From the NCBI GenBank assembly GCA_000092065.1, contig CP000595.1: 64,000 nt of DNA; one strand, written 5' to 3'. The notes below the pieces were generated by a model. That model was not told the origin of the DNA and ran no database searches. It worked only from the letters and a program-made list of their open reading frames with translations. The DNA is from Ostreococcus lucimarinus. Its lineage: Eukaryota. The translations under genes were made by a program, and so were the position numbers. Below, one piece after another: positions 1-30,987 of the stretch. Within the stretch, counting starts at the first letter, position 1, and each line of letters opens with the position of its first letter.

Positions 1-1374
1 GGCAAAGTTCATGGCGCTGTCCACGTCCCCGCCCGAGTGCGTGGTCTTTAAAACCCACAAGTAATGTTTGAAAGAATCGATCATTTGCGGCATGTGGAAC
101 GCGGGGCCGTGGATGCCGTCCGAGCGCCAACCCGCCTTCATACCGGCCAAATCTTCTCGCGTCAAGCCGGCGTTATCCCACAAGTGCGCCCAGAAATCGT
201 CCCAGTTACCGGTGTGCAAAAAGTGCAGGTATGCCTCGCAAATCTTCACATCATCGGGCGTGGTGTTAGAGTGAAGCTTTTGATGCCACTGCGCGATGAA
301 CGGATCCTCGATTCCCGGACGATGTCCCTCTTTGATGCCGTGCGTTCGCATGATGTTCAAGATGCCCATGCGAATATCGTCGCCGTTGCCTCCTCCGCGC
401 GGTAAGAATGCGAGCGAGGCGCGCATGAGTCCGCGCGACGTGGCGTCCGGCGCCGTCGTCGCCGCGTGCGCGATGCGTCCCGCCAAGCGCTCTTGCTTGC
501 TCGCCATGTCCTTGCCCTGGTAATTGTTCCCGGCGTACCAGTGCAACTGGCGCAGCGAGCTCAGGCGCAACCACGCGTAGACGAGCGCCGCACCCTCGGG
601 CCCGATCGCCAACGCGGCGTCCAGGGCGTCGTCAACCATGCAAAATCGCGTGAACAAGTTCACGCTCCCACCCTCGTGCTCGGCGGCGCGTCGCGCCAAC
701 GATTCCGCGCCCGCCGCGCCGCCGCCGCCGCCCGCCGCGGATTCTCTCACCCTCATCTCCACGTCCCCGTCCTCCGCGTGCGCCCAAAACTCTCCGCACA
801 CGACGATCCCGACGATCGACCCAACGTTTCTCAACCCCTCGACGTCCCCTTCGCTCGCGTTCGAGCAATCCATCTCCAACGTCAGCGTCCCGCTCGCGTC
901 GAACGCGCTCCTCGACGCGATCCCGTCCCCGAAATCCCTACTCCCCGTCCTCGCCTCCAGCCCGCGCGGCGCCTTCGCCCACGACCCATCGCCATCGACC
1001 GCCCGCGTCGCCCAGTGCAGTTCGACCTCGCCTCTCGCGCACCGCTCCAGGAGCGCGTCGTCCGCCGCCCGCAGCGTCGCCGTCGTCGTCCCGTTCGCGC
1101 GCGTCCGCGTCTCCACTCGCACCGCGTGCCCCCCCGCGAGCGCGTGCGTCGTCTCGCGGACCACGTCCGGGACGTCCGCCTTTTTTTCGCGCGCGCCGGC
1201 GCCTCGTCCGACGCGCGCGCGCGTCCCGGCGTCGATCGCGCCGCGCGCCGTGGATAGCGTTCCTCGCGAAGATCGCGTCGCGCGGCGCGCCGTCGCGCGG
1301 TCGATCGTCGCGCGCGCCGCGTCCGCGCGCGCGAACGTCGCGCGCGTCGCGTCGCGCGCGAGAGAGACGCGCAT
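1..1374 (-). CDS. alpha-glucan water dikinase (GWD)-like protein, N-terminal part; gene continues past the left window edge
   Basis: Minus-strand frame is open from about 1374 to base 1 and is not in the ORF track because it has no stop in the window. Translation contains WHQKLHSNTTPDDVKICEAYLHFL and LVYAWLRLSSLRQLHWYAGNNYQ (conserved GWD central region) and a CBM45-like VELHWATRAVDGDGSWAKAP. The N-terminus MRVSLARDATRATF... is Ala/Arg/Ser/Thr-rich and resembles a transit peptide. The true start is uncertain. Confidence 0.55.
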   Translation of the reverse strand, partial: MRVSLARDATRATFARADAARATIDRATARRATRSSRGTLSTARGAIDAGTRARVGRGAGAREKKADVPDVVRETTHALAGGHAVRVETRTRANGTTTATLRAADDALLERCARGEVELHWATRAVDGDGSWAKAPRGLEARTGSRDFGDGIASRSAFDASGTLTLEMDCSNASEGDVEGLRNVGSIVGIVVCGEFWAHAEDGDVEMRVRESAAGGGGGAAGAESLARRAAEHEGGSVNLFTRFCMVDDALDAALAIGPEGAALVYAWLRLSSLRQLHWYAGNNYQGKDMASKQERLAGRIAHAATTAPDATSRGLMRASLAFLPRGGGNGDDIRMGILNIMRTHGIKEGHRPGIEDPFIAQWHQKLHSNTTPDDVKICEAYLHFLHTGNWDDFWAHLWDNAGLTREDLAGMKAGWRSDGIHGPAFHMPQMIDSFKHYLWVLKTTHSGGDVDSAMNFA

Positions 1375-1516
1375 CGCGCGCGCGCGCGTCGTCGGTCGCG
1401 GTGTGACGATTCGCTTCGACGAATCGAATCGTCAGAGCGCGACGCCGCGCCGCGCGGACGCGTCGACGCGCGGCGCGACGCGACGGCGACGCGCGCGGTC
1501 CTCCGCGGCGTTTCGC

Positions 1517-1726
1517 ATGTGCGGCGCGTGCCGCGCGCGGCGCGCGAGCGCGAGAGAGACGACGACGCGCGCGGAATTCTGCGCGCCGTGTCGCGACGGC
1601 GCGAGAGCGACGACGACGCGCGCGACGCGCGTCGCGGACGGGGCGTCGTTCGACGTCGTCGTGTGCGGCGCGGGCGCGGCGGGGACGTCGTTCGCGCGGA
1701 CGTACCTGGAGACGACGGCGCGGGGT

Positions 1727-1766
<40 letters not shown>

Positions 1767-3241
1767 CGCGCGGCGCGAGGCTGCTGCTGCTCGATCGCGG
1801 CGGATGCGCGAAGACGGTCGAGCGCGTGGAGCGCGTGACGCGGCGGGCGTCGGTGTACGGCGCGCGGGAGAGCGCGCTGGGGGCGCTGGAGGCGCTGGGG
1901 GCGCGGACGGCGACGGCGAGCGTCGCGGCGTGCGACGCCGAGTCGAAGACGTTGACGCTGGACGACGGCGCGCGCGTGCGGTACGGCGCGCTGTGCGTCG
2001 CCACGGGGGCGACGCCGCGATGTCCGCTGCCGGAGGCGAGCGATGGAGCGGTCGACGCGCACGAGGTGCGAGACGTGGAGAGCGCGGACGCGCTGGCGAG
2101 ACGGTTGAGCTCGATGACGGCGACGGCGAGCGCGGATTCGGATTCAAAGACGAAACGGATCGCGATCGCGGGGAACGGAGGGATCGCGCTCGAGCTCGTC
2201 GACGCGCTCTGTGTGCGAGGTTTGCGCGCGCGAGGGTTGGAGGCGTGCGAATTGGTGTGGTTGGTGAAACACGGCGAAGTCGGCGACGCCTTTTTCGACG
2301 TCGACGCCGCGGATTTCTTGCTGCGCGCGCTCGACGCGAGACGGCGAGACGGCGAGGCGAAAGACGACGACGGCGCGGACGTGGACTGGGACTCACCGAC
2401 GCCCGAACGCGGTGCCGGACGATCGACGAAGAAGCGCGCGCGAGGGCGCGAATCAGGCGCCGCCGCCGGTCCGGATTGGCTCGACAGATTTAGAGCGAAG
2501 AGCGCGGCGGACGACGCGCGCGCGCCTCTCAGCCGCATGAAGCTTCGCGTGCTGAAAAATGTGTGCATACGCGAAGCGCGTAAAGACGCAAACACCGGCG
2601 TCAACGTATTGACGCTGAGCGATGGGACGACGATCGAGGTGGACGCCGTCGTCGCCGCCGCGGGCGTCGAGCCGAGATGCGATTGGCTCGACGAAGTCGC
2701 CGCGCCGAGGTCGAAATCAGACGGCGGTATACTCGTCGATGCGTGCATGCGCACCGTAGGACCGTACGGCGACTCAATATTTGCCGTCGGCGACGCGTGC
2801 ACGATGTCGGCGCGCGCGTCGAACCCAGAGACGCCGTGGTTTCAAATGCGACTGTGGAGCCAGGCGGCGCAAACAGGCGCCTTCGCCGCGAAAGTCGCCG
2901 TGGGCGTCTGCGACGCCGACGCCCTCGGATTCAATTTCGAAATCTTTACCCACGTCACCAGGTTTTTCGGTCTCAAAGTCATCTTGCTCGGGCTGTACAA
3001 CGCCCAGAAGCTCGACGACGTCCCGGCGAACGAGGTGACGACGTACCAGCGCGAGTCGCTCGCCGACGCGACGTACGTGCGCGTGCTCCTCGTCCGCGGT
3101 CGCATGATGGGCGCCGTGCTCGTCGGCGACACCGATCTCGAGGAAACTTTCGAAAACCTAATCTTAGACGGCGTCGATCTATCGCGTTTCGGTCCGAGTT
3201 TACTCGATCCCGAGCTCGACTTGGAGGATTATTTCGACTGA
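1517..3241 (+). CDS. PYROXD1-like pyridine nucleotide-disulfide oxidoreductase (FAD/NAD(P)-binding), copy 1
   Basis: Rossmann motif FDVVVCGAGAAG is present. The C-terminal block WFQMRLWSQAAQTGAFAAKV...FEIFTHVTRFFGLKVILLGLYNAQ...RGRMMGAVLVGDTDLEETFENLILDGVDLS...LLDPELDLEDYFD matches the PYROXD1 C-terminal domain almost motif for motif. Start is taken at MCGACRAR. The upstream part of ORF 638..3241 is antisense to the GWD gene and is rejected. Confidence 0.75.
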
Positions 3242-3323
3242 CGCGACGCGCGAGACGAGCGAGAAACGAATGAAATCAAATGACAATCAACCCTAGACAA
3301 CTACCACCGTCCGACGCCCGCGC

Positions 3324-3674
3324 TCAGTGCGGTTTCGGCACGAACCCGTCCACCGCGAAATTCCGCGTCGCGCGCGGTAAAATCACGACGCATCCCTCCA
3401 ACGCTCCGCGCTCCAGCGTCACCTGACACCCCAACCTCGACGTCGCCGTCAACCCGTACGCCAAATCTAACATGTCGTTCTCGTCGTCGCACGCCTCCGG
3501 CAGCGTCTCGAACACTTTTTCGTCCTCGAACACGACGTGGCACGTGGAACACGCGAGCGAGCCCTCGCACGCGCCCTCGAGCTCGACGTCGTGCCGGTGC
3601 GCCGTCTCCAGCAGGTTCTCGCCAATCAATCCGCGCACCGCGCGTCGCTCACCGTCGCGCTCGACGAACGTCAC
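3324..3674 (-). pseudogene. truncated adrenodoxin-type [2Fe-2S] ferredoxin fragment (duplicate lacking N-terminus and ATG)
   Basis: Encodes the same C-terminal 116 aa as the full gene at 10442..11047, including CEGSLACSTCHVVFEDE and LGCQVTL. It starts at a GTG, the in-frame upstream sequence has no ATG, and the duplication boundary (about 3727) cuts off the presequence. Confidence 0.6.
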
Positions 3675-4283
3675 CTCGATCGAGTTCTCGGGCGTGAGTT
3701 TCGTCTTTTTGTCCGCGCCGTGCGCGACCGTGATCCCGGCTCGTCCACGTGGCGCGTACGAATAAGAATGAGAATGAGAATGCGCGGCGATCGAGCGTCT
3801 TCGTTCGCGCGGTCGCGTCCCCGCGCTCGGCCGCTCGTGCGTTCGCGCGCGTTCGCGGTCGAGTCGATCACCGGACGACGCGTTCGTTCGCGCGTCGTCG
3901 AGTGCGGCGACCGAGGGCCGTCGCGCCCGGTGATGCGATGTCCACGTGGGATCGTGGAATATCTGGCTGTGTGCGTAAACAGTGACGGGGGGCTTCTCGG
4001 ATCGACCCCGCGGCCCGTGGGGAGAGGGGCATGGTGTTGGATGGTGTGTACGCGAAACGTGTGTGCATCATACGTATATTGACCCAAAGGTATCTATCAC
4101 GTGTAAAGGTACTAATGTGTGTGTGAAATTCAATGATGGGTCATGACTCGAGAACGGGGGGGGGAGGCACACCCGGGATGCGCGCCGATTCTTATCGACA
4201 GAGGAGGACGAGGAGGACGATTGGCGCGCGCGTCGCGTTCGATGGAAAACCGATGTCGTATGACAAACAGATAAAAACGTTAT

Positions 4284-5918
4284 TTAGTGCGCGTGCCCGT
4301 GCGAGTGGCCGCCGCCGCCGCCGGCTGTGCAGTGCTTGTGGTTGAGGAGCACGAGACTGACGGCGACGACGCCGACGACGAACGTCAAGAGGCTCGCCGC
4401 GCGAAGACGAGACGTAGTGGCGCTCACCGAAACTCGCGGCATACACTCCGCGGCAGCGATTTGTAGATAGATTCCAGCGCCAAAGGCGAGCAAAAGTCCG
4501 TGCCAGAAGTCGTTGTTACTTCCAGATCCAACGCTGATGAGAACGCCGAGGATGACGCTCACGCCGGAGATGAAGTTCATGAACAGCGAGCGAAACGGCG
4601 TGAGATCGCCCTGGAAGGGATCCGTGAGTACCAAATAGTCGGCGAGCTCTTGCGCGATTTCGTGATAGACGGTCGCGGCGGTGATCGACCATCCCATGGT
4701 CTTTCCACAGTTCAGGAAACCGAATCCGATGAAGATGCCATCCACGAGGTTGTGCATGAAATCTCCGAGGATGATGCCGCTTCGAACGCGATACTTGTGC
4801 GAGTGGCACGTTTCGCAATCTTCTTGAACGCCTTTGATCGCGTTCTCCGCGTCGATCGTCTTCGTCTCGGCTAAACGAGAAGGGAACGCGATGGAGATGC
4901 CCAAATCGATGATGTACGCCACGAGAAAGCCAAAGACGGACGCGGACGCCCACCACGCGGTTTGTTGCGACTCATCCGAACCGGCGGGTTTGATCAAATG
5001 CGTGGCTTCGTACAACATCAGATAGAACGCAGCCGAAAGAAGTGCACCGGCGGCAAAGGAGTTAATGATGCAACTCACGAATTCGGGGTACGCTTTCTGC
5101 TTCTTCGCGAAGCTCGGAGAGAGAAAGATGACGCCGGAAAGCGTGACGATGTTGACGATGATCGCCGCCCCGATGGCGTCGGACCACGGTTTTGATTTCT
5201 TTGTAGTCACCGTTTCGGGAAGCGAAGCCACTGGCTCCACGTCATCCCCGTTGACATCCTTGAGATAGTGCGTATCGCGCTCGAACTCGGTGGGAACGTG
5301 CTCGGCGAAAATCGAGACGGCGGCGACGCCAGTCGTATCAATCTTAAACGACGACGTGTGCCAAGCGTTATCAAATTGAAGTTTGACGCATCCACTCCCG
5401 GGCGTCAAAACGCTGTTTCGCGTTTTAACCGTCGTGCACGCCGTCTCGAGCGCGGCCTCGCCCGCGTCCTCGCGAGCCTCGAGCTCTTCGTGTCCGGCGG
5501 CGGTTTCGGCGTAGATGACCATCTTCATGGTCGCGTCCGCGTACTGGTCCTTCACCTTTTCCGCCTGCCACACGTACGCATCGTCCGGAGTCTCAAAGAT
5601 CCCCGCCCATTCGAACGAGTGCGCGTGCGCGCCGGACGCGAGCGCGCCGCGCGCCGCGAGCGCGCTCGAGACGACCGCCGCGCCTCCGAGCGCGGCGCCC
5701 ATCCTCCATCCGCCTCCTCGTCGTCGTCGTCGTCGTCCCGCGCCCGCGGTCGCGTCTCGCGTCGTCATCGCGTCGCGCATCGTCTCGTCTATCGTCTCGT
5801 GCATCGTCTCGTTCGTCGTCGTCGTCGTCGTCGCGCGTCGTCGAGTGCGGCGACCGCGCGCGCCGGCATCGCGACGAGACGACTCGAACCGGCGCGAGGG
5901 GGGTACTTCTCGAGTCAT
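4284..5918 (-). CDS. ZIP-family metal (zinc) transporter, LIV-1-like subtype
   Basis: TM4 motif HNLVDGIFIGFGF and TM5 motif YHEIAQELADYLVL (HExxxExxD) are present. There is a His-rich C-terminal tail GGGGGHSHGHAH and a long extracellular N-domain. A probable signal peptide MGAALGGAAVVSSALAARGALASG suggests the true start is at about 5702. Confidence 0.8.
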   Translation of the reverse strand: MTREVPPSRRFESSRRDAGARGRRTRRRATTTTTTNETMHETIDETMRDAMTTRDATAGAGRRRRRRGGGWRMGAALGGAAVVSSALAARGALASGAHAHSFEWAGIFETPDDAYVWQAEKVKDQYADATMKMVIYAETAAGHEELEAREDAGEAALETACTTVKTRNSVLTPGSGCVKLQFDNAWHTSSFKIDTTGVAAVSIFAEHVPTEFERDTHYLKDVNGDDVEPVASLPETVTTKKSKPWSDAIGAAIIVNIVTLSGVIFLSPSFAKKQKAYPEFVSCIINSFAAGALLSAAFYLMLYEATHLIKPAGSDESQQTAWWASASVFGFLVAYIIDLGISIAFPSRLAETKTIDAENAIKGVQEDCETCHSHKYRVRSGIILGDFMHNLVDGIFIGFGFLNCGKTMGWSITAATVYHEIAQELADYLVLTDPFQGDLTPFRSLFMNFISGVSVILGVLISVGSGSNNDFWHGLLLAFGAGIYLQIAAAECMPRVSVSATTSRLRAASLLTFVVGVVAVSLVLLNHKHCTAGGGGGHSHGHAH

Positions 5919-5943
5919 GACTCGATATTCATGAGAACACCAT

Positions 5944-5971
5944 GTGTCGACACCTCGCGAGGTGTCGACAC
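5944..5971. promoter_or_regulatory. 28-bp composite palindrome GTGTCGACAC-CTCGCGAG-GTGTCGACAC containing two ZDRE-like sites (RTGTCGACAY)
   Basis: Read directly from the sequence. It lies in the divergent promoter between the ZIP gene (minus) and the bZIP-like gene (plus). Confidence 0.5.
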
Positions 5972-6017
5972 GCGTGTCTTCGTACGTCCGCGCGCGACGA
6001 CGACGACGACGACGAGG

Positions 6018-6680
6018 ATGACGACCGTCGGCGGCGCCGCGCGACGTGACGATCGAGGCTCGGCGTTGCCTCCGCGATGCGTCGAGATCGCGCGCGAGTC
6101 GCCGTCGGCGTCGCCGTCTCGAAGGAAAACGCCCGCGAACGATCGCGCCGTCAATCGCGCCGCCGTGCGACGGTACCGCGAGCGCAAACGAATGGACGAG
6201 AAGGAGAGAATCGAGGAGTGCGAACGGTTGCGCGGGGAGAACGAGACGTTGAGACTGGCGTTGGAGACGTCACGAGCGGAGTTGAAACATTCGAGGTGGT
6301 TGTTGCGCGTCGTCGCGTGGAAGTACGACTTAGACTTGGCGGATATTCCGACGGAGAAACCGTCGACGTCGACGATGCCGCAAGGGAGGGTGAGAGGAAG
6401 CGATGCAAACGCGGTGTTTCCCGCGGGTGGGGTCCCCGCGCGGAACGACATCGCGCGACCGTTCGCCGCGCGCGGCGTCGCCGAGACGCGGCCTCGGAAA
6501 ATTCCTCGCGCAGCCGACGACGACGCGAAACCGGCGGGCGCGCCTGATGAACTCGAGCTCAAAGATTTCTTGGAGGAATACTTCACGCACGGCGACGCGT
6601 GCCCGTGCTACGAGATCACGGACGCGGACGCGCGCGCGGCGCCGACGCGCGGCGCCGACGCGCGGCACGCGTGGTTCTAG
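6018..6680 (+). CDS. small bZIP-like protein with C-terminal His/Asp/Cys-Pro-Cys motif (paralog A)
   Basis: Basic region NRAAVRRYRERKR (N-x7-R) is followed by a Leu heptad zipper, a conserved ELKHSRWLLRVVA block, and the C-terminal FLEEYFTHGDACPCYE. Start is taken at MTTVGG; the longer ORF 5268..6680 overlaps the ZIP gene and the palindrome. Confidence 0.6.
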   Translation: MTTVGGAARRDDRGSALPPRCVEIARESPSASPSRRKTPANDRAVNRAAVRRYRERKRMDEKERIEECERLRGENETLRLALETSRAELKHSRWLLRVVAWKYDLDLADIPTEKPSTSTMPQGRVRGSDANAVFPAGGVPARNDIARPFAARGVAETRPRKIPRAADDDAKPAGAPDELELKDFLEEYFTHGDACPCYEITDADARAAPTRGADARHAWF

Positions 6681-6869
6681 GTATGACGACACATTTACGT
6701 CACACGGTGAAACGTTTTACGCTTCTAATATTATATTATAAAGTTAGTCAACCTATATAGTTACACGCACCACATGATGTCACACGTGATGTGCACACGC
6801 GTATGTATTCGTACTGTGAGTACAATAAGCCTAACATTGTGTAAAATCCCGTGCCCACGATGATCGCGC

Positions 6870-6879
6870 GTGTCGACAC
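6870..6879. promoter_or_regulatory. ZDRE-like palindrome GTGTCGACAC upstream of the COG0523 gene
   Basis: Exact 10-mer about 75 bp upstream of the MADEQDQ ATG. A CACGTG G-box at about 6783 lies in the AT-rich region just upstream. Confidence 0.45.
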
Positions 6880-6952
6880 GAACAGACGGTTGGCCGAAAA
6901 GGCGAAAGGGTCGGCGGCTGTCGTCATCTCTCGACGAACGTTGGCGCTCGAC

Positions 6953-8167
6953 ATGGCGGACGAGCAAGACCAGACCTCGCGCGTGCCGGTGACCATTCTC
7001 ACCGGATTTCTCGGTTCCGGGAAGACGACGCTCCTCAATGAAATCTTGGAATCCGAAACGCACGGATTGCGCTTCGCGGTGATTGAAAATGAATTCGGAG
7101 AGGTGGGCGTCGACGAGAGGATTCTGTCGGAGAAGGCGGACGAAGAGATCATCGAGGTCATGAACGGTTGCATCTGCTGCACGGTGCGCGGTGATCTCGT
7201 GGTGGCGCTGAAAAAGCTCTACTCGAAGATCGCGCAGTTCGACGCCGTCATCATCGAGACGACGGGTTTGGCGGATCCGGCGCCGGTGGCGCAGACGTTC
7301 TTCGTCGACGATGACATTCGAGAAAAGTTTGTGCTCGACGGAATCATCACGGTCACGGACGCGAAGCACATCCTCACGCGGCTCGATGATGAAAAACCCG
7401 AGGGTGTGGAGAATGAAGCCGCCGAACAGGTCGCTTTTGCCGATCGGATACTCCTCAACAAGACCGACTTGGTGTCCGAAGACGAACTCGAAACCATCAC
7501 GGGCCGGATCAAGCAAATTAATCCGAGCGCCGATATCTTCCGATGCCAGTATTCCAAGGTTGATCCGAAAAATTTGATCGGAATCAATTCCTTCTCGCTC
7601 GAGAAGACCTTAAAAATGGATCCCGAATTCCTCAACACGGAGGGCGAGCATGAACACGACCCAACCGTGTCTTCGACGAGCACAAAATTCTCTGGGCACC
7701 TCAACATCAATAAATTAGAACGCTGGATAGGCGAAATAATTCAAACAATGGGTGCGGACTTGTTTCGGTACAAGGGTGTTCTTTCCGTTGCGGGCATGGA
7801 TCAAAAGTTTGTTTTCCAGGGCGTCGGCATGCTTTTCTCCGGCGGCTTCGTCGACGCCAAGTGGGGAGCCGACGAGGAGCGCGAATGCCGCTTCGTCTTC
7901 ATCGGTAAAAATCTGGACAAAGACGCCCTCATCAACGGTTTCATGGATTGCAAGTGTTCCTCGAAGCTTCGCTTCAAGGTGGGCGACGCGGTTCTCGCGC
8001 AGGTGGGCGCCGCCGACAACGACGGCTACTGCCGCGGCACCGTCCGTAAGACGTGGGACTCGGGCAACCCGTACCAGATCGAACTTGAAGACGGTAAAAA
8101 GACAAAAGTGTGGGGACCCGTCGACGAAGACGAGTTCGTCAAAGCTTCGCTCAGCGCCACCGCGTAA
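6953..8167 (+). CDS. COG0523 / CobW-family GTPase (ZNG1/ZCP-like zinc metallochaperone) with extra C-terminal domain
   Basis: Walker A motif GFLGSGKTT and the metal-binding motif GCICC are present, with a CobW C-terminal domain. The extra C-terminal module is KLRFKVGDAVLAQVG...YQIELEDGKKTKVWGPVDEDEF. Start is moved to MADEQDQ because the ZDRE-like site lies inside the annotated ORF start region. Confidence 0.85.
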   Translation: MADEQDQTSRVPVTILTGFLGSGKTTLLNEILESETHGLRFAVIENEFGEVGVDERILSEKADEEIIEVMNGCICCTVRGDLVVALKKLYSKIAQFDAVIIETTGLADPAPVAQTFFVDDDIREKFVLDGIITVTDAKHILTRLDDEKPEGVENEAAEQVAFADRILLNKTDLVSEDELETITGRIKQINPSADIFRCQYSKVDPKNLIGINSFSLEKTLKMDPEFLNTEGEHEHDPTVSSTSTKFSGHLNINKLERWIGEIIQTMGADLFRYKGVLSVAGMDQKFVFQGVGMLFSGGFVDAKWGADEERECRFVFIGKNLDKDALINGFMDCKCSSKLRFKVGDAVLAQVGAADNDGYCRGTVRKTWDSGNPYQIELEDGKKTKVWGPVDEDEFVKASLSATA

Positions 8168-8315
8168 ATGTCGTTTTGTATGAAATCAAATCAAAATTTT
8201 GACCAGTCATGAACCTTCGTGTACACACTCCTCCTTTAGCGCGAACACACACGCATAGTATAGATACAAAAAGACAAGGTAAAACCCATCCAACGCACTC
8301 GCACCGGCTCGCCGG

Positions 8316-8492
8316 CTCGCCTCGTCCGACGCGCGCGCGCGTCCCGGCGTCGATCGCGCCGCGCGCCGTGGATAGCGTTCCTCGCGAAGATCGCGTCGCG
8401 CGGCGCGCCGTCGCGCGGTCGATCGTCGCGCGCGCCGCGTCCGCGCGCGCGAACGTCGCGCGCGTCGCGTCGCGCGCGAGAGAGACGCGCAT
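8316..8492 (-). pseudogene. orphan 5' fragment of the GWD-like gene (first about 60 codons) carried in duplication copy 2
   Basis: ORF 8151..8492 begins MRVSLARDATRATF..., identical to the GWD N-terminus at 1198..1374, then reads into unrelated sequence. Confidence 0.4.
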
Positions 8493-8634
8493 CGCGCGCG
8501 CGCGCGTCGTCGGTCGCGGTGTGACGATTCGCTTCGACGAATCGAATCGTCAGAGCGCGACGCCGCGCCGCGCGGACGCGTCGACGCGCGGCGCGACGCG
8601 ACGGCGACGCGCGCGGTCCTCCGCGGCGTTTCGC

Positions 8635-8844
8635 ATGTGCGGCGCGTGCCGCGCGCGGCGCGCGAGCGCGAGAGAGACGACGACGCGCGCGGAATTCTGC
8701 GCGCCGTGTCGCGACGGCGCGAGAGCGACGACGACGCGCGCGACGCGCGTCGCGGACGGGGCGTCGTTCGACGTCGTCGTGTGCGGCGCGGGCGCGGCGG
8801 GGACGTCGTTCGCGCGGACGTACCTGGAGACGACGGCGCGGGGT

Positions 8845-8884
<40 letters not shown>

Positions 8885-10359
8885 CGCGCGGCGCGAGGCT
8901 GCTGCTGCTCGATCGCGGCGGATGCGCGAAGACGGTCGAGCGCGTGGAGCGCGTGACGCGGCGGGCGTCGGTGTACGGCGCGCGGGAGGACGCGCTGGGG
9001 GCGCTGGAGGCGCTGGGGGCGCGGACGGCGACGGCGAGCGTCGCGGCGTGCGACGCCGAGTCGAAGACGTTGACGCTGGACGACGGCGCGCGCGTGCGGT
9101 ACGGCGCGCTGTGCGTCGCCACGGGGGCGACGCCGCGATGTCCACTGCCGGAGGCGAGCGATGGAGCGGTCGACGCGCACGAGGTGCGAGACGTGGAGAG
9201 CGCGGACGCGCTGGCGAGACGGTTGAGCTCGATGACGGCGACGGCGAGCGCGGATTCGGATTCAAAGACGAAACGGATCGCGATCGCGGGGAACGGAGGG
9301 ATCGCGCTCGAGCTCGTCGACGCGCTATGTGTGCGAGGTTTGCGCGCGCGAGGGTTGGAGGCGTGTGAATTGGTGTGGTTGGTGAAACACGGCGAAGTCG
9401 GCGACGCCTTTTTCGACGTCGACGCCGCGGATTTCTTGCTGCGCGCGCTCGACGCGAGACGGCGAGACGGCGAGGCGAAAGACGACGACGGCGCGGACGT
9501 GGACTGGGACTCACCGACGCCCGAACGCGGTGCCGGACGATCGACGAAGAAGCGCGCGCGAGGGCGCGAATCAGGCGCCGCCGCCGGTCCGGATTGGCTC
9601 GACAGATTTAGAGCGAAGAGCGCGGCGGACGACGCGCGCGCGCCTCTCAGCCGCATGAAGCTTCGCGTGCTGAAAAATGTGTGCATACGCGAAGCGCGTA
9701 AAGACGCAAACACCGGCGTCAACGTATTGACGCTGAGCGATGGGACGACGATCGAGGTGGACGCCGTCGTCGCCGCCGCGGGCGTCGAGCCGAGATGCGA
9801 TTGGCTCGACGAAGTCGCCGCGCCGAGGTCGAAATCAGACGGCGGTATACTCGTCGATGCGTGCATGCGCACCGTAGGACCGTACGGCGACTCAATATTT
9901 GCCGTCGGCGACGCGTGCACGATGTCGGCGCGCGCGTCGAACCCAGAGACGCCGTGGTTTCAAATGCGACTGTGGAGCCAGGCGGCGCAAACAGGCGCCT
10001 TCGCCGCGAAAGTCGCCGCGGGCGTCTGCGACGCCGACGCCCTCGGATTCAATTTCGAAATCTTTACCCACGTCACCAGGTTTTTCGGTCTCAAAGTCAT
10101 CTTGCTCGGGCTGTACAACGCCCAGAAGCTCGACGACGTCCCGGCGAACGAGGTGACGACGTACCAGCGCGAGTCGCTCGCCGACGCGACGTACGTGCGC
10201 GTGCTCCTCGTCCGCGGTCGCATGATGGGCGCCGTGCTCGTCGGCGACACCGATCTCGAGGAAACTTTCGAAAACCTAATCTTAGACGGCGTCGATCTAT
10301 CGCGTTTCGGTCCGAGTTTACTCGATCCCGAGCTCGACTTGGAGGATTATTTCGACTGA
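8635..10359 (+). CDS. PYROXD1-like oxidoreductase, copy 2
   Basis: Identical to copy 1 except for two residues. Its upstream flank is the 3' region of the COG0523 gene. Confidence 0.75.
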
Positions 10360-10441
10360 CGCGACGCGCGAGACGAGCGAGAAACGAATGAAATCAAATG
10401 ACAATCAACCCTAGACAACTACCACCGTCCGACGCCCGCGC

Positions 10442-11047
10442 TCAGTGCGGTTTCGGCACGAACCCGTCCACCGCGAAATTCCGCGTCGCGCGCGGTAAAA
10501 TCACGACGCATCCCTCCAACGCTCCGCGCTCCAGCGTCACCTGACACCCCAACCTCGACGTCGCCGTCAACCCGTACGCCAAATCTAACATGTCGTTCTC
10601 GTCGTCGCACGCCTCCGGCAGCGTCTCGAACACTTTTTCGTCCTCGAACACGACGTGGCACGTGGAACACGCGAGCGAGCCCTCGCACGCGCCCTCGAGC
10701 TCGACGTCGTGCCGGTGCGCCGTCTCCAGCAGGTTCTCGCCAATCAATCCGCGCACCGCGCGTCGCTCACCGTCGCGCTCGACGAACGTCACCTCGATCG
10801 AGTTCTCGGGCGTGAGTTTCGTCTTTTTGTCCGCGCCGTGCGCGATCCGCGGCGACGCGGAGACGCCGCGAGCGACGTAAAGCTGGGCAGGTTTCTGGGA
10901 CGCGCGCGGCGCGGCGTCCCGGGGACGCGACGCCGACGCGCGCGGGAGGGCGGTCGAGGCGAAACACGCGGTCGACGACGACGACGACGACGACGACGCG
11001 CATCGCGCGCTCGCGGCGGCGCACGCGCGCGCGAGACGGCGAAACAT
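10442..11047 (-). CDS. adrenodoxin-type [2Fe-2S] ferredoxin with N-terminal organellar presequence
   Basis: Cys ligand motifs CEGSLACSTCHV...LGCQV are present. The Ala/Ser/Arg-rich N-terminus MFRRLARACAAASARC looks like an organellar presequence. It is convergent with the oxidoreductase, with 83 bp between their stops. Confidence 0.85.
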   Translation of the reverse strand: MFRRLARACAAASARCASSSSSSSSTACFASTALPRASASRPRDAAPRASQKPAQLYVARGVSASPRIAHGADKKTKLTPENSIEVTFVERDGERRAVRGLIGENLLETAHRHDVELEGACEGSLACSTCHVVFEDEKVFETLPEACDDENDMLDLAYGLTATSRLGCQVTLERGALEGCVVILPRATRNFAVDGFVPKPH

Positions 11048-26487: not shown

Positions 26488-26699
26488 CGAATCCGTCCCT
26501 CTTATCGATGACGCGTCTTTTTCGTCGTCGCGCCGGCGTCGCGCGTTCGCGCGTCCGAAACGCCGCCCGAGCGCGTTCGACGCGCGTCCGCTCGCGAATC
26601 CGAGAGCGCGTCGCCGTCGTCGCGTCCGCGTCGCGGTGTGCGCGTCCCGAATCGCGCCGTCCCAGGCCCCTCTTCGTCGCACTTCGCCGCGCGACGCGA

Positions 26700-27194
26700 A
26701 TGCGCGCGTCGCGCGGCGACGACGCGCCGGCGCTCCCGGGACGCGCGGTCGCGGTGGACGAAGACAAAAAATCGATCGACAACGACGCGAACAAGCGCGC
26801 CGTCAAGCGCTACCGCGATCGTCAGCGCGACGCGAAGATGAAGTTGGAATCCGAAAACGCGGCGCTGCGAGTGGAGACGACGCGGTTGGCGACGGAGCTC
26901 GCGCACGCGCGATGGGTGCTCGACGCGGTGGCGTCGCGGTGCGGGATGAAGCGACGCGCGACGGGGCGCGACGCGGACGCGGCGCTGCGCCGAAGCGTCG
27001 CGCGCGTGATCCACGGCGCGGGGTGCCCGCTGGGACATCAGGGGCGGGACAGGCCGTTTCGATTGGACGCGACGGAGGCGAGGCGACGCGAGGACGAGGA
27101 CGAGGACGAGTTGGCGGCGTTTTTGAAGGAGTTTTTGGTGCACGAGGACGGGAAGTGTCCGTGCCCGGGGCGCGCGCGCGATGGGGGCGAGTAG
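26700..27194 (+). CDS. small bZIP-like protein with C-terminal Cys-Pro-Cys motif (paralog B)
   Basis: NKRAVKRYRDRQR (N-x7-R) is followed by an L-x6-L-x6-L zipper, the conserved ELAHARWVLDAVA block and FLKEFLVHEDGKCPCPG. It has the same architecture as paralog A. Confidence 0.6.
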   Translation: MRASRGDDAPALPGRAVAVDEDKKSIDNDANKRAVKRYRDRQRDAKMKLESENAALRVETTRLATELAHARWVLDAVASRCGMKRRATGRDADAALRRSVARVIHGAGCPLGHQGRDRPFRLDATEARRREDEDEDELAAFLKEFLVHEDGKCPCPGRARDGGE

Positions 27195-27675
27195 AGGATA
27201 GTTGTGTTGTATGAATAGTGATGTGGCGTGACGAACGGATGCGTGTGATCTGCTGCCCCTCAACCGGTCTCTTGAGTCCGTACTGTAGCGCGGAAATTTA
27301 GTAATTCAGAATGAATTAACTGTCTCAACGCCTGATGCGTTCAGCGTTCCACTGCTAAGCGTATCTCTACCTGATGGGGTCCGAGGCCTCGAAGTCCTAG
27401 GCCGAAGGAGATTGAAGGCAATTCGCGTGCGATTCGTGAAAGCAAATGTGCGTCTTATAAACAACCCCGTCGGTAAGGGACGGGTCTAACAAGTGACGCG
27501 CGCAAAGGAGCAGTTGCGCGTGTCGTCGCTTTATTTGCTGACATTTTTTATATAGCGTAATTGGAGGTATTCTAGTACCTCAGAGTTCATATAAGGACGA
27601 TGCGTATACCTATTTACCATAGAAATGGCTAAGGCCCTTTCGTCAGCGTGCGCGACGACGCGCGCCGCGGCGTTA

Positions 27676-29166
27676 CTAGTGCGCGTGCTCGACGCCGAGT
27701 TGCGCGAGCGCGATGACGAGAACGCCGGCGGTGTAACACACGAACTTGTAAATGCGCATGCCGCGCGCGGGCGCTTCGTGCACGGTGTGCGTGTGCGGAG
27801 CGAGTTTATGGTCGTGACCGTGCTCGTCTTCGCACGATTGCGTTTGCGTCTCGAACTCGTCGCCGATGACTTCCACGGTACCGACGTAAATGAACGTACC
27901 GGCGGCGATGCCCTCGAGGACGGCGGAGACGGCTGGGCTGTGTGCGCTTTCCGCCGCGCACCCGATCAAGATCCCGATCGGGGTTATGAACGAAAACGCC
28001 GTCATGAAAATGAAGAGCGTCTGCGGATTCGTCATGCCGCAGCGCAAAAACGCGCACCCGATGCTGAACGCGGCCGCGGCTTTGTGCGACGCGATGGCGG
28101 TGAAAATCGCGTACACACTGTTTCGATCGCTTTGAAGCCCGAGGGAGACACCCGCGAGAGAGGCGTGCAACGCGACGCCCGCCATGAAGAGCAAAGCCGT
28201 TCTCGTCTGCGCGAAGATGGACACGTGACGACCCTTCTCGTCGTGCGCGCACGTGTCGCACGCGTCGGTCGACGCCTTGTCCACGACGACGACGACGGCC
28301 GCATCGACGTGATGTTCTTTACTTTGTCCGTGTCCGTGTCCGTGTCCGTGGCCGTGCTCTCCGTCGCCCTCGCTCTCCGTCACGTGCGAGTGCGTGTGAA
28401 ACACGACGCGTTCGACGAAGAACGCGATGAGAAATCCCAGCATGACCATGACCATGGCGAAAGGATACTCCTTCGCCGTACCGATGCGTGCCTCCGTCGC
28501 GCTCTCGAGCGCGTGCGGGACGAGGTGCACGAACCCAGACGCGAGAAACAATCCCCCGCTGAACGCGTTCATAAACTCCAACGCGCTCTGCATCTTCGGC
28601 AGCGTTCTCACGAACAGCGACGGCAACATTCCTCCCGCCAAACCTTCAAAAAACACAGCCACCATGAGACCCATCTTGAGTTTGAAATGCTTCAACCCAC
28701 CCGTCGCCGCCGCCGCGCTTTCCGCCTCGCTCGCGATGAACGTGCACGTCGACTCGCTCAGGCACCGCGCCGCCAAACTCAGCGCCGAGAGCAACTCGGT
28801 CTCGTTCAACTTTTGATCCGCGCCCGCGTACGTCGTGATCACGTCCGCCGACGACACGTTCGTCAGCGTCTCCTCCGCGCTCGCGTGCGCGTGTCCAGCG
28901 CTCGCGTGCGCGTGTCCAGCGTGCGAATCCGCGCCCGCGCCCGCGCCGCTCGTCCTCGCCGCGAACCGCTCGAACAATTCGCTCAGCTCGTGAGCGTCCA
29001 TCGTCGCGTCGTCGTTGTCGTCGTTGTACGTCTCCAAGATGTGATCCACCGGCGTCTCGTCGCCTCTCGCGACGCGCGCCATCGCGCACGCGCACGCGCA
29101 CACCGTCAGCGCCGTCGCGAATCGCGCGCGCGCCCGTCGACACCGCCGCCGGTCGTTCGCCGTCAT
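27676..29166 (-). CDS. ZIP-family metal transporter, IRT/ZRT-like subtype
   Basis: His-rich motifs DSHAGHAHASAGHAHAS and GEHGHGHGHGHGQSKEHH are present, with TM motifs LHASLAGVSLGL and SHKAAAAFSIG. The 496-aa product starts at MTANDRR; the 1118-aa ORF-track call is upstream read-through. Confidence 0.8.
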   Translation of the reverse strand: MTANDRRRCRRARARFATALTVCACACAMARVARGDETPVDHILETYNDDNDDATMDAHELSELFERFAARTSGAGAGADSHAGHAHASAGHAHASAEETLTNVSSADVITTYAGADQKLNETELLSALSLAARCLSESTCTFIASEAESAAAATGGLKHFKLKMGLMVAVFFEGLAGGMLPSLFVRTLPKMQSALEFMNAFSGGLFLASGFVHLVPHALESATEARIGTAKEYPFAMVMVMLGFLIAFFVERVVFHTHSHVTESEGDGEHGHGHGHGHGQSKEHHVDAAVVVVVDKASTDACDTCAHDEKGRHVSIFAQTRTALLFMAGVALHASLAGVSLGLQSDRNSVYAIFTAIASHKAAAAFSIGCAFLRCGMTNPQTLFIFMTAFSFITPIGILIGCAAESAHSPAVSAVLEGIAAGTFIYVGTVEVIGDEFETQTQSCEDEHGHDHKLAPHTHTVHEAPARGMRIYKFVCYTAGVLVIALAQLGVEHAH

Positions 29167-29397
29167 CTTGTCTCGCGCCGTCGCGAATCGCGCGCGCGTC
29201 GAGTCCCGGTCTCGACGCCCGCGCCCGGTTCGCCCCGGTTCGAGCGCGCGCGAACGAGCCGAAGAGGCGTCGCGAAGTGCGGCGATGCGCGCGCGTCGTG
29301 CACGTGTCGACGATTCGCGTCGTGCACGTGTCGAGGATCGTCGTACGCGACGCCCCGCGAAGCCCATCACGGATCGCGTCGCGACGCGCGTCGTAAA

Positions 29398-29497
29398 CAT
29401 GTCGACACGCATGTCGACATATTTACCCACGCGCGTGTACGCATTGAACCCCGTGATGCATCTATATACGAAAAACGTCTCGACGCACATGTCGACA
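29398..29497. promoter_or_regulatory. three ZDRE-like palindromes (ATGTCGACAC at 29398, ATGTCGACAT at 29410 and 29488) in the promoter shared by the ZIP and LHC genes
   Basis: Exact 10-mers read from the sequence. They lie about 230-330 bp upstream of both flanking start codons. Confidence 0.5.
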
Positions 29498-29565
29498 TAT
29501 TTACCCCACGCGCGTGTACGCATTGAACCCCGTGATGCATCTATATACGAAACAGATAAATGCAC
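29408..29565. repeat. about 78-bp tandem repeat (2 copies), relatively AT-rich, carrying the ZDRE-like motifs
   Basis: catgtcgacatatttaccc(c)acgcgcgtgtacgcattgaaccccgtgatgcatctatatacgaaa occurs twice. Confidence 0.6.
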
Positions 29566-29715
29566 GAAATACACGGTGGTAAACAGACCCCGAATGCGAT
29601 GCGCACGGACGTTCGAGCGCGCAAAAAGCGCGATCGAGCGAGCGATCCGATCCGCGCGCGATCGCTCGCTCGATCGCGCGCGTCGCCACACGCCGACGAC
29701 GCGCGCGCACTCGCG

Positions 29716-30987
29716 ATGTTCAAGACGAAAGCCCCCGCGCCGAAGACGGCGGTGAAGAAATCCGCGCCGGCGAAGAAGGCGCCGGCGAAGAAGGCGCCGG
29801 CGAAGAAGGTCGCGGCGAAGAAGGCGCCCGTTCGCAAGGCGGGCGACGACGAGGTGCGACGCGAACGACGACGATCGCGACGACCGGGCGCGCGCGACGA
29901 CGCGATGGCGCGCGCGACGACGCGATTGAATGGGAAGAATATTCGCGGCGCGCGTCGGGCGGGGACGGCGCGACGCGCGGCGGGAGGGGAGACGGGAAGG
30001 CGATGGATGCGCGGACGGGGACGATATCCTGGAGATATGGTTTGACGCGCGCGACGCGGGCGCGAGACGCGAGGGCGGCGCGCGGCGCGAGACGGTCGCG
30101 AACGATCGAGAGGGAGAGAAATCGTGGACGCGCGCGCGGTGCGGGACGGATCGGCGGGTCGACGCGCGCGGTGGGCGACGCGGGAGGGCGCGACGCGAAG
30201 ACGACGAGACGACGCGAGACGGAGGACTGACGGCGAACGCTCGCGTTCTCGCGCGATAGCTCTGGCGTCCGGGTGCCGTGCGACCGGCGTGGTTGGATGG
30301 CTCTCTCCCGGGTGACCGTGGATTCGATCCGTTCAACTTGTCCAAGTGCGTGTGGCGACGTGACGCGATGCGACGCGAGCGCGCGAGACGCGTCGACGAA
30401 TCGCAGACTGACGGCGTTTGTTTCGCAGGCCGATTGAATACGTTCAATTCGATCTTGACGCTCTCGATGGCTCCGCCGCGACGAACCCGGCGGGTCGGGT
30501 GATCGGTAAGCTCAAGAAGACCGACAACAAGCCGAAGGCGCGCGCGATCGTGCCGTACGACGAGTCCTTCGACATCATGCGCTTCCGCGAGTGCGAACTC
30601 TTGCACTCTCGCTGGGCCATGCTCGGCTTGGTCGGCGCCACCGCCGCGGAAGCCGCCACGGGTATCTCCTGGGCCGACGCCGGTAAGGTTGAACTTGAAC
30701 AACCGCAATACCTCGGCTTCCCGCTCCCGGGCTTGTCCGTCGCCTCCTTGACGGCGATTGAAGTGCTCGCGATGGGTTACCTCGAAGTCGCCCGCTCGGC
30801 GGAGCTCGACCAAAACAAGCGCATGTACCCGGGCGGCGCGTTCGACCCGCTCGGCTACGTCGCCAACGCCGACGCCGAGGAGGAATTCCGCCTCAAGACG
30901 GCTGAACTCAAGCACGGTCGCTTGGCAATGGTGGGCATGTTGATCATCTCCATCGAAGCCGCGGCCGGCCACGGCGTGCTTCCGTAA
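29716..30987 (+). CDS. light-harvesting chlorophyll a/b-binding protein (Lhca-like), three exons: join(29716..29853, 30260..30345, 30429..30987)
   Basis: Exon 2 encodes the Lhca-type [29 protein letters not shown]. Exon 3 has helix 1 [16 protein letters not shown] and helix 3 [14 protein letters not shown]. The donors are GTGCGA and GTGCGT, both introns have a CTGAC branch, and the acceptors are ...gatag and ...tttcgcag. The spliced CDS is 783 nt in frame. Exon 1 is Lys/Ala-rich ([15 protein letters not shown]...). Confidence 0.7.

Follow-up and report, generated by a model that had tools for sequence, protein, structure and literature searches.

In Arabidopsis, the palindrome RTGTCGACAY is the zinc deficiency response element (ZDRE) through which the basic leucine zipper (bZIP) factors bZIP19 and bZIP23, whose own transcripts are unresponsive to zinc, activate genes for ZIP metal transporters (PMC9643250), and the plant literature holds that this F-bZIP/ZDRE system arose with the land plants (PMC5476651, PMC9643250). 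Bacteria and Chlamydomonas alike induce genes of the COG0523 class when depleted of zinc (PMC2770081). Here, we describe a 64,000-nt stretch of nuclear DNA from the green alga Ostreococcus lucimarinus CCE9901 (contig CP000595.1; hereafter the window) in which a ZIP transporter gene, ZIP2, lies beside a gene for a bZIP-type protein, bZIP B, and is preceded by three perfect ZDREs in a tandemly repeated promoter module. From comparison with related loci we think it reasonably probable that this region is one of two linked zinc-homeostasis modules in the window, ZIP2 being driven via a homotypic cluster of three ZDREs that the neighbouring bZIPs would bind under low zinc.

The flagged region comprises, in order, bZIP B on the plus strand (26700-27194), ZIP2 on the minus strand (27676-29166), an intergenic region of 549 bp and a plus-strand gene for the light-harvesting protein CP29. 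The convergence of bZIP B and the ZIP gene agrees with the initial annotation of this DNA, which had also reported three ZDRE-like sites in the ZIP promoter, within a duplicated 78-bp unit richer in A+T than its surroundings. All three sites are perfect matches to RTGTCGACAY, and the array is indeed low in G+C (48.1%, against 72.4% in the left flank, 65.0% in the right flank and 63.8% in the window). The duplicated unit is real, although its span of 29408-29565 was given 13 bp too late at both ends; Tandem Repeats Finder places it at 29395-29552 (period 79, 2.0 copies, 93% matches, score 281), where it resolves into two repeat blocks, one pairing 29426-29473 with 29505-29552 (48 nt, 100% identity, spacing 79) and the other 29395-29428 with 29473-29506 (34 nt, 88%, spacing 78). 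The first copy holds site 1 (ATGTCGACAC, 29399-29408) and, 12 bp from it, site 2 (ATGTCGACAT, 29411-29420), both of which are kept in the closely related contigs L001, L002 and L003. The second copy holds site 3 (ATGTCGACAT, 29489-29498), gained via the tandem duplication, together with a degenerate counterpart of site 1 (GTCTCGACGC). Besides a ZDRE, each unit contains the palindromes CACGCGCGTG and GATGCATC and a TATATA motif (29463-29468 and 29542-29547). The sites lie 233-332 bp from the ZIP2 start codon and 218-317 bp from that of CP29. Between ZIP2 and the main array is a further, 24-bp tandem repeat of two copies (29292-29338, Tandem Repeats Finder) that carries CACGTGTCGA(C/G) half-ZDREs; it is absent from the aligned sequences of L001, L002 and L003 and is thus specific to the window strain.

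The product of ZIP2 is a ZIP-family (Zrt/Irt-like) metal transporter of 496 residues with three His-rich stretches. Its Pfam Zip match (8e-48) spans residues 162-487, the match to the TIGR00820 model 'ZIP zinc/iron transport family' (2.5e-29) is under the curated cut-off, JGI names its homologues 'zinc transporter 1/2/3', and its N-terminus can be aligned with those of the orthologues in L012 and L013. The Zip domain and the His-rich stretches in the translation place the protein in the ZIP family, its metal specificity being only predicted. A sequence search of the PDB with ZIP2 returned no match at an E-value of 0.001 or better, and the model has no exact match in the protein collection, presumably owing to a differing reference gene model. 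The open reading frame of bZIP B encodes 164 residues, is kept in the relatives P0001-P0006, P0097 and P0100, and is paralogous over its full length to that of a second gene, bZIP A.

The gene bZIP A belongs to the other module, a cassette 21 kb from the ZIP2 locus whose first member is ZIP1 (4284-5918, minus strand), a ZupT/GufA-like ZIP with an N-terminal extracellular domain (Pfam Zip 3.2e-21; ZupT 3.9e-9, under its cut-off) and a true start that is probably near 5702. It is followed by bZIP A itself (6018-6680, plus strand; 220 residues; identical to XP_001421633.1) and by a COG0523/CobW-type G3E GTPase (6953-8167, plus strand; 404 residues; identical to XP_001421634.1) with strong Pfam matches (cobW 2.1e-61, CobW_C 9.2e-23). 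The GTPase also matches the NCBIfam YjiA-like, CobW and ZigA models, each under its cut-off, its role as a zinc chaperone being a prediction only. The ZIP2 locus had been described as a second ZIP and bZIP gene pair, and this stands for the bZIPs, which are homologous over their full length (30% identity, E 4e-10). It does not stand for the transporters, which are of different subfamilies (ZIP2 TIGR00820-type, ZIP1 ZupT-like; E 0.05), nor for the gene orientations, which differ. The second pair is therefore no copy of the first, and an origin by segmental duplication of the first pair is rejected.

In the window, RTGTCGACAY occurs six times against 0.50 expected, a count that none of 100 shuffles reaches, and the inner octamer TGTCGACA likewise occurs six times, against 1.36 expected. 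Beyond the three sites at ZIP2, a motif scan finds two copies of GTGTCGACAC, 18 bp apart, between ZIP1 and bZIP A (5944-5971, with starts at 5944 and 5962) and a third 74 bp upstream of the COG0523 start codon (6870-6879), so that every one of the six octamers adjoins ZIP1, bZIP A, COG0523 or ZIP2. The association extends to other lineages, for which we use the O. tauri locus (L007) and, under the remaining L numbers, metagenome or related-lineage loci. In about 153 kb of non-redundant sequence (the window with L007 and four other Mamiellales lineages, L008, L009, L012 and L013) the octamer occurs 22 times, 21 of them fitting the full 10-mer, and all 22 lie in intergenic DNA beside ZIP1, ZIP2, bZIP A or COG0523 genes. 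The ZDREs are the only words of nine or more bases, CG-rich low-complexity words apart, that the intergenic regions of O. lucimarinus have in common with those of O. tauri, L008, L009, L012 and L013; as this DNA is otherwise unalignable, the sites constitute a clear phylogenetic footprint, and these comparative data make a regulatory role for them very likely.

At ZIP1-type loci, the divergent ZIP (minus) and bZIP (plus) genes are followed by a plus-strand cobW gene in O. tauri, L009 and L010, only the ZIP and bZIP genes being kept in L008, and the flanking genes differ each time, as if the cassette relocated as a block, with different neighbours in O. tauri, L008 and L009. The homologues of bZIP A include the O. 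tauri protein named 'Basic-leucine zipper domain', and the O. tauri trio corresponds to ostta06g02310, ostta06g02300 and ostta06g02290, as matched on gene length with the PMC4855317 supplement. O. tauri has three ZDREs, between its ZIP and bZIP genes, against 0.13 expected, while L009 has five and L008 four against 0.1-0.2 expected, and again none of 100 shuffles reaches the observed numbers. Many of the sites at these loci are spaced by 12 or 18 bp, the 12-bp spacing in O. tauri and L009 being that of sites 1 and 2 at ZIP2. Further instances come from a quirk of annotation, in that prokaryote-style gene calls of bZIP A (L009 10001-10034; P0008, P0014, P0017, P0022 and P0026) begin inside ZDREs and so acquire false N-termini (MSTPMSTPVSTP, GVDT..GVDT or HVDIRRSVDT) such as tandem RTGTCGACAY encodes, which hints at ZDRE pairs in additional lineages.

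A second conserved palindrome, TCGAGTCATGACTCGA (core GAGTCRYGACTC), is found at 5910-5925 of the window, on that side of the ZDRE pair which faces ZIP1, at a distance of about 20 bp, and has the annotated ATG of ZIP1 at its centre. It accompanies the ZDREs of O. tauri (L007 9873-9884) and L008 (9986-9997) as well, and may be a partner cis-element.

Where ZIP2 homologues share only 50-60% identity with the protein of the window, their genes stand in the same order, namely choline transporter, exonuclease, unknown, CP29, ZIP2, bZIP B and HAD, the last four of which keep this order in L001, L003, L012 and L013. Two of these more distant loci have ZDREs upstream of ZIP2, namely L012, with GTGTCGACAT and ATGTCGACAG at 313-421 bp from the ZIP2 ATG, and L013, where two copies of GGATGTCGACATCGTC are 280-470 bp away from the start of ZIP2 and 690-830 bp away from that of CP29. 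The 79-bp repeat is found in none of L011, L012 and L013. The spacer between CP29 and ZIP2 has its own peculiarities in two of them: L011 has, at 5885-5925, two ATGACGTCAT palindromes of the cyclic AMP response element (CRE) type, 18 bp apart, as if the half-site TGTC had become TGAC, and the AT-rich spacer of L013 contains a long perfect inverted repeat (aaaaagttgcttcggtccgagatgtagccac ... gtggctacatctcggaccgaagcaacttttt, 5690-5795) that resembles a small hairpin insertion.

Among close relatives it is the number of repeat units that differs. Homologues of bZIP B led to syntenic metagenome contigs of 82-98% DNA identity, of which L001 carries four ZDREs in three 79-bp units and L003 three ZDREs in two units, while L002 stops within the array. 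An exact 20-mer of the unit matches eight JGI metagenome contigs, three of which, L014, L015 and L019, have three units and four ZDREs, with a 79/89-bp variant of the unit. The copy number is accordingly polymorphic, at two units (window, L003) or three (L001, L014, L015, L019), giving three or four perfect sites. The initial annotation had proposed comparing the copy number between strains, where a difference is now apparent, and had considered that the repeat might be a common dispersed element; as seven of the eight contigs that carry the unit represent the single ZIP2-CP29 locus, it is not.

Two contigs depart from the general arrangement. In L016 (Ga0206682_10026301), a lone 79-bp unit that starts with GTGTCGACAT (3230-3310) has unrelated surroundings, the nearest feature noted being an open reading frame that begins about 700 bp downstream and encodes a 615-residue acidic, Lys-rich protein with no Pfam match, and a TCGAGTCATGACTCGA-type palindrome (3364-3375) lies about 70 bp from it; the unit may mark a further member of the regulon or be a transposed promoter module. 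In L017 (Ga0209666_1029062, 3,178 bp), an array, ZIP2 and bZIP B are followed by the equivalent of window position 26684 joined to 29593 and by a second, slightly different array, which looks like a tandem duplication of the 2.9-kb ZIP2 and bZIP B cassette in some population, or else a circular assembly path.

The candidate regulators form a small and distinctive family. The bZIP domain of bZIP A is recognized above the Pfam cut-off (bZIP_2, 9.4e-7), its basic region reading NRAAVRRYRERKR and its C-terminal motif FLEEYFTHGDACPC. That of bZIP B combines a basic region NKRAVKRYRDRQR with a short zipper ending in ELAHARWVL, the sequence HGAGCPL...PFRL and a C-terminal FLKEFLVHEDGKCPCPG motif. In ten, and then in nineteen, members the invariant features are N..A(V)..RYR.R.R in the basic region, EL.H..W.L at the zipper end and F-L-x5-H-x3/4-C-P-C at the C-terminus; H91, H191, C195 and C197 are invariant in both paralogue families, and the B family additionally has H-x3-C-P-L...PFRL. 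An AlphaFold2 monomer model built on a 19-sequence alignment has a mean predicted local distance difference test score of 60.9, with confidence confined to the bZIP helix and a short helix at 178-188, and gives no usable contacts for placing the C-terminal HxxxCPC against the zipper His.

When 1.84 billion representative proteins were searched with the family profile, just 17 fell below 1e-10, all of the bZIP A/B family. The next two matches are P0104, with two NRAAVRRYREKKK-type domains and a Cys/His-rich N-terminus, and P0107, in which an NREAVRRYR basic region is followed by two 'FL...H...CPL...GPFRLP' motifs. True F-bZIPs (CTHTHTCNPP...HTHTC) rank lower, with E-values of 2e-5 to 1e-3, and are interspersed there with GCN4- and ATF4-like proteins. 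The five DNA-contact residues of the algal proteins, N-x2-A-V-x2-Y-R, are the same as in P0183, P0185 and P0189, F-bZIP matches that bear the Zn-sensor motif, while the F-bZIP P0191 differs at one contact position (NRATVRKYR); F-bZIP matches with the Cys/His motif read NR[EA]AVRKYREKKK. Apart from two proteins of otherwise unrelated basic-region sequence, all matches with N..AV..YR are of the bZIP A/B family or F-bZIP-like, and when the basic region was scored by ungapped domain scoring against 90 matches outside the family, the AV..YR proteins came highest (43.8 against 35.0). The N-terminal Zn-sensor motif of F-bZIPs is present in none of about 45 members of the algal family, which have the C-terminal H-x3/4-C-P-C instead. 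We do not class the algal bZIPs as F-bZIP members, though they may work like them.

Taken together, these features lead us to propose the following circuit. ZIP2 would be driven from a bidirectional intergenic region by way of its three RTGTCGACAY palindromes, which dimers of bZIP B, of bZIP A or of both would bind. By analogy with Arabidopsis bZIP19/23, the bound bZIP would activate ZIP2 at low cellular zinc, and zinc held by the invariant His at the zipper end and by the C-terminal H-x3/4-C-P-C would switch the factor off. A duplication of 12 bp would have produced sites 1 and 2, and a 78/79-bp duplication of the whole promoter module would have added site 3, each extra unit being expected to raise ZIP2 output. 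As the repeat is still polymorphic, with three or four sites, it is a plausible tuning knob for ZIP2 expression. In the other module, bZIP A would be autoregulated through the ZDREs that it has in common with ZIP1. In O. tauri cultures with normal zinc, the ZIP1 orthologue ostta06g02310 is almost silent (PMC4855317), which fits a gene induced by deficiency. Lelandais et al. (2016) label the bZIP of this species ATF4/5-like and take the ZIP gene beside it for a putative iron transporter, and do not interpret the genes as a zinc regulon.

Several observations weigh against this proposal, and others are taken up with the alternatives below. Two publications state that F-bZIPs are absent from green algae, with O. 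lucimarinus named (Castro et al. 2017, PMC5476651; 2022 review, PMC9643250). The match of bZIP B to Pfam bZIP_2 (0.0087) scores 16.6 bits where the cut-off is 22.3. Profile comparison by hhalign gives 1e-10 against F-bZIP, 1.2e-10 against GCN4-like and 1.2e-11 against ATF4-like proteins, scores that are not separable, and in ungapped domain scoring the zipper scores better against ATF4-like proteins. The sites are also missing from some loci, there being no ZDRE in the AT-rich CP29-ZIP2 spacer of L011, whose ZIP2 orthologue has 60% protein identity, and no TGTCGACA at a Bryopsis ZIP locus (L022) or at a distant GC-rich ZIP locus (L023), these last two absences being uninformative.

It seems to us very improbable that the sites are SalI-type palindromes arisen by chance, or that they belong to a mobile element or dispersed repeat with no relation to these promoters. 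The unit copy in a different context on the metagenome contig L016 would suit such an origin, but even this copy lies about 70 bp from a GAGTCGTGACTC palindrome, the companion of ZDREs at ZIP1 promoters, and the shuffles of the window, L007, L008 and L009, the concentration of unit-bearing contigs at one locus and the conservation of sites where the surrounding intergenic DNA cannot be aligned all speak against it. A more substantial alternative accepts the bZIP sites and the metal regulon as genuine and looks for the signal in iron, in the general status of divalent metals or in the day/night cycle. Both ostta06g02310 and an IRT1-like O. tauri gene with three His-rich motifs, ostta16g02300, respond to iron deprivation, so that the signal may not be zinc alone, and most O. 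tauri metal genes cycle diurnally (PMC4855317); the three His-rich stretches of ZIP2 and its match to a 'zinc/iron' model point the same way. Set against these are the identity of the motif with the zinc-specific plant ZDRE, the presence in the cassette of a COG0523 GTPase, a class tied to zinc depletion in bacteria and Chlamydomonas, and the invariant Cys and His residues of the regulator, which are typical of zinc ligands, and on this balance we consider a signal other than zinc unlikely. To a similarly low degree we credit the view that the ZDREs are functional and the 79-bp duplication is a neutral polymorphism of slippage or unequal crossing-over with no measurable effect. Environmental contigs contain both two-unit and three-unit alleles as well as 79- and 89-bp variants, site 1 has a counterpart in the downstream units that has decayed to GTCTCGACGC, and lineages at a greater distance have just two sites and lack the 79-bp repeat, all as neutrality would have it, yet the units are near-identical between strains whose flanking ZIP2 and bZIP B differ by 7-18%, and tandem-duplicated ZDRE clusters have arisen independently, as 12-bp repeats in O. 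tauri and L009 and as the duplicated GGATGTCGACATCGTC of L013.

The remaining alternative concerns the gene on the other side of the promoter. The initial annotation had called it Lhca-like; it is a chlorophyll a/b-binding protein gene and it is divergent from ZIP2, but its product is CP29/Lhcb4, a minor antenna of photosystem II. The splice model (29716-30987, plus strand; exons 29716-29853, 30260-30345 and 30429-30987) yields a 260-residue protein identical to XP_001421643.1, annotated in the reference as 'possibly CP29', which matches PDB CP29 chains over residues 24-257 at 1.7e-72 to 2e-53 and Lhca1 chains, over residues 123-257 only, at about 1e-32 at best; an Lhca identity is ruled out by this difference. 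The repeated module might be mainly the core or proximal promoter of this highly expressed gene, the ZDREs acting on CP29 besides or instead of ZIP2. In each unit, TATATA lies about 50 bp downstream of the ZDRE toward CP29, 218 bp separate site 3 from the CP29 ATG, the adjacency of CP29 and ZIP2 is kept in every lineage examined, and the CP29 side of the intergenic region is its most conserved part (98.7% identity to L001, against 92.7%). With sites equidistant from the two start codons and TATA-like motifs on the CP29 side, the target gene is uncertain. In L013, however, the ZDREs are ZIP2-proximal and separated from CP29 by an AT-rich block, those of L012 likewise lie upstream of ZIP2 (the CP29 start being unlocated in that contig), and no photosynthesis gene is near any other ZDRE cluster, these adjoining ZIP, bZIP or COG0523 genes. 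We judge it unlikely that the module serves CP29 in the main, and zinc control of CP29 in any form is unlikely; the earlier suggestion that the light-harvesting neighbour responds to zinc finds no support in the placement of the sites in L013.

With perfect ZDREs in the ZIP2 promoter and a gene for the kind of protein expected to bind them close by, a zinc circuit published as exclusive to land plants probably exists in green algae too. Our literature search found no report of an algal ZDRE or zinc bZIP, with the proviso that subscription journals were mostly outside it and absence is no proof, and it found no zinc-limitation transcriptome for Ostreococcus. One might go further, and tentatively suppose that a bZIP-ZDRE circuit predates the split of Chlorophyta and Streptophyta, having existed in their common ancestor. 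In the Mamiellales it would survive in the form of compact, relocatable cassettes, in which a regulator, a ZIP transporter and a COG0523 chaperone share ZDRE-bearing intergenic regions, with an autoregulated regulator, a C-terminal Cys2His2-type sensor made up of the zipper His and H-x3-CPC, and natural copy-number variation of the 79-bp module by which transporter expression is tuned to the local zinc supply in the ocean; we would regard this extended history as possible and as something short of expected.

Other features of the window touch these genes less directly. The first exon of CP29 (29716-29853) codes for an unusual Lys/Ala/Pro-rich N-terminus whose repeat number is different in L001. 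Just 5' of the CP29 start codon, and probably within the 5' untranslated region, two 20-nt arms separated by a 12-nt loop (29628-29647 and 29660-29679) form a perfect inverted repeat, the left arm (29628-29647) being 4 nt shorter in L001 and L003. The ZIP1/bZIP A/COG0523 cassette (3731-8306) is flanked by a direct repeat of 2,543 bp and 99.6% identity (1191-3730 and 8307-10849), each copy of which contains most of a large open reading frame of the FAD/NAD oxidoreductase type. A fourth modelled protein of the window is also identical to a reference entry, XP_001421645.1.

The interest of the locus is that, in Ostreococcus and its relatives among the Mamiellales, ZIP and COG0523 genes are marked by the exact cis-element of plants, with a candidate bZIP alongside. 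It thereby supplies a candidate zinc sensor and regulon that are directly testable in the genetically tractable picoalga O. tauri, and is relevant to the question of an ancient or a convergent origin of the plant circuit. The natural promoter polymorphism of three against four sites could, moreover, tie the evolution of gene regulation in marine phytoplankton to the supply of trace metals.

Among described systems, promoter minisatellites resemble the ZIP2 array in that a tandem repeat of tens of base pairs multiplies a factor site and varies in copy number within a species; they differ in that the site here has a predictable specificity and its likely cognate factor is encoded next door. The yeast activator Zap1 acts through the zinc-responsive element (ZRE) ACCTTNAAGGT, which differs from the ZDRE. 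Zap1 is a C2H2 zinc-finger protein with no homology to the algal bZIPs, although the logic is similar, with a zinc-sensing activator, several palindromes at an uptake gene of the ZIP family and an activator gene that is autoregulated (PMC9643250). Bacterial Zur likewise co-regulates zinc uptake genes and COG0523 GTPases, often in clusters (PMC2770081), but is a Fur-family repressor with a different operator and a prokaryotic operon context. Chlamydomonas reinhardtii is closer, being a green alga in which the same classes, ZIP/ZRT and COG0523, are induced (PMC2770081); the regulator and cis-element of its zinc homeostasis are stated to be unknown in that work, and neither a ZDRE nor a linked bZIP is known to have been described in this alga.

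The strongest likeness is to the F-bZIP regulon of land plants, with its ZIP and NAS targets. The 10-bp consensus is identical and is found, singly or in several copies, a few hundred base pairs upstream of ZIP genes, and the algal bZIP has the same base-contact residues, N..AV..YR, and Cys and His residues that could bind zinc. The sensor itself differs, land-plant F-bZIPs having an N-terminal bipartite CxHTHTC...HTHTCxHxH motif where the algal proteins have the short C-terminal H-x3/4-CPC. The algal system is also unlike that of land plants in its organization, since there is physical linkage between the genes of the regulators and those of the presumed targets, a COG0523 GTPase among the latter, and since bZIP A shares a ZDRE-bearing intergenic region with ZIP1, which suggests autoregulation, in contrast to the zinc-unresponsive transcripts of bZIP19/23.

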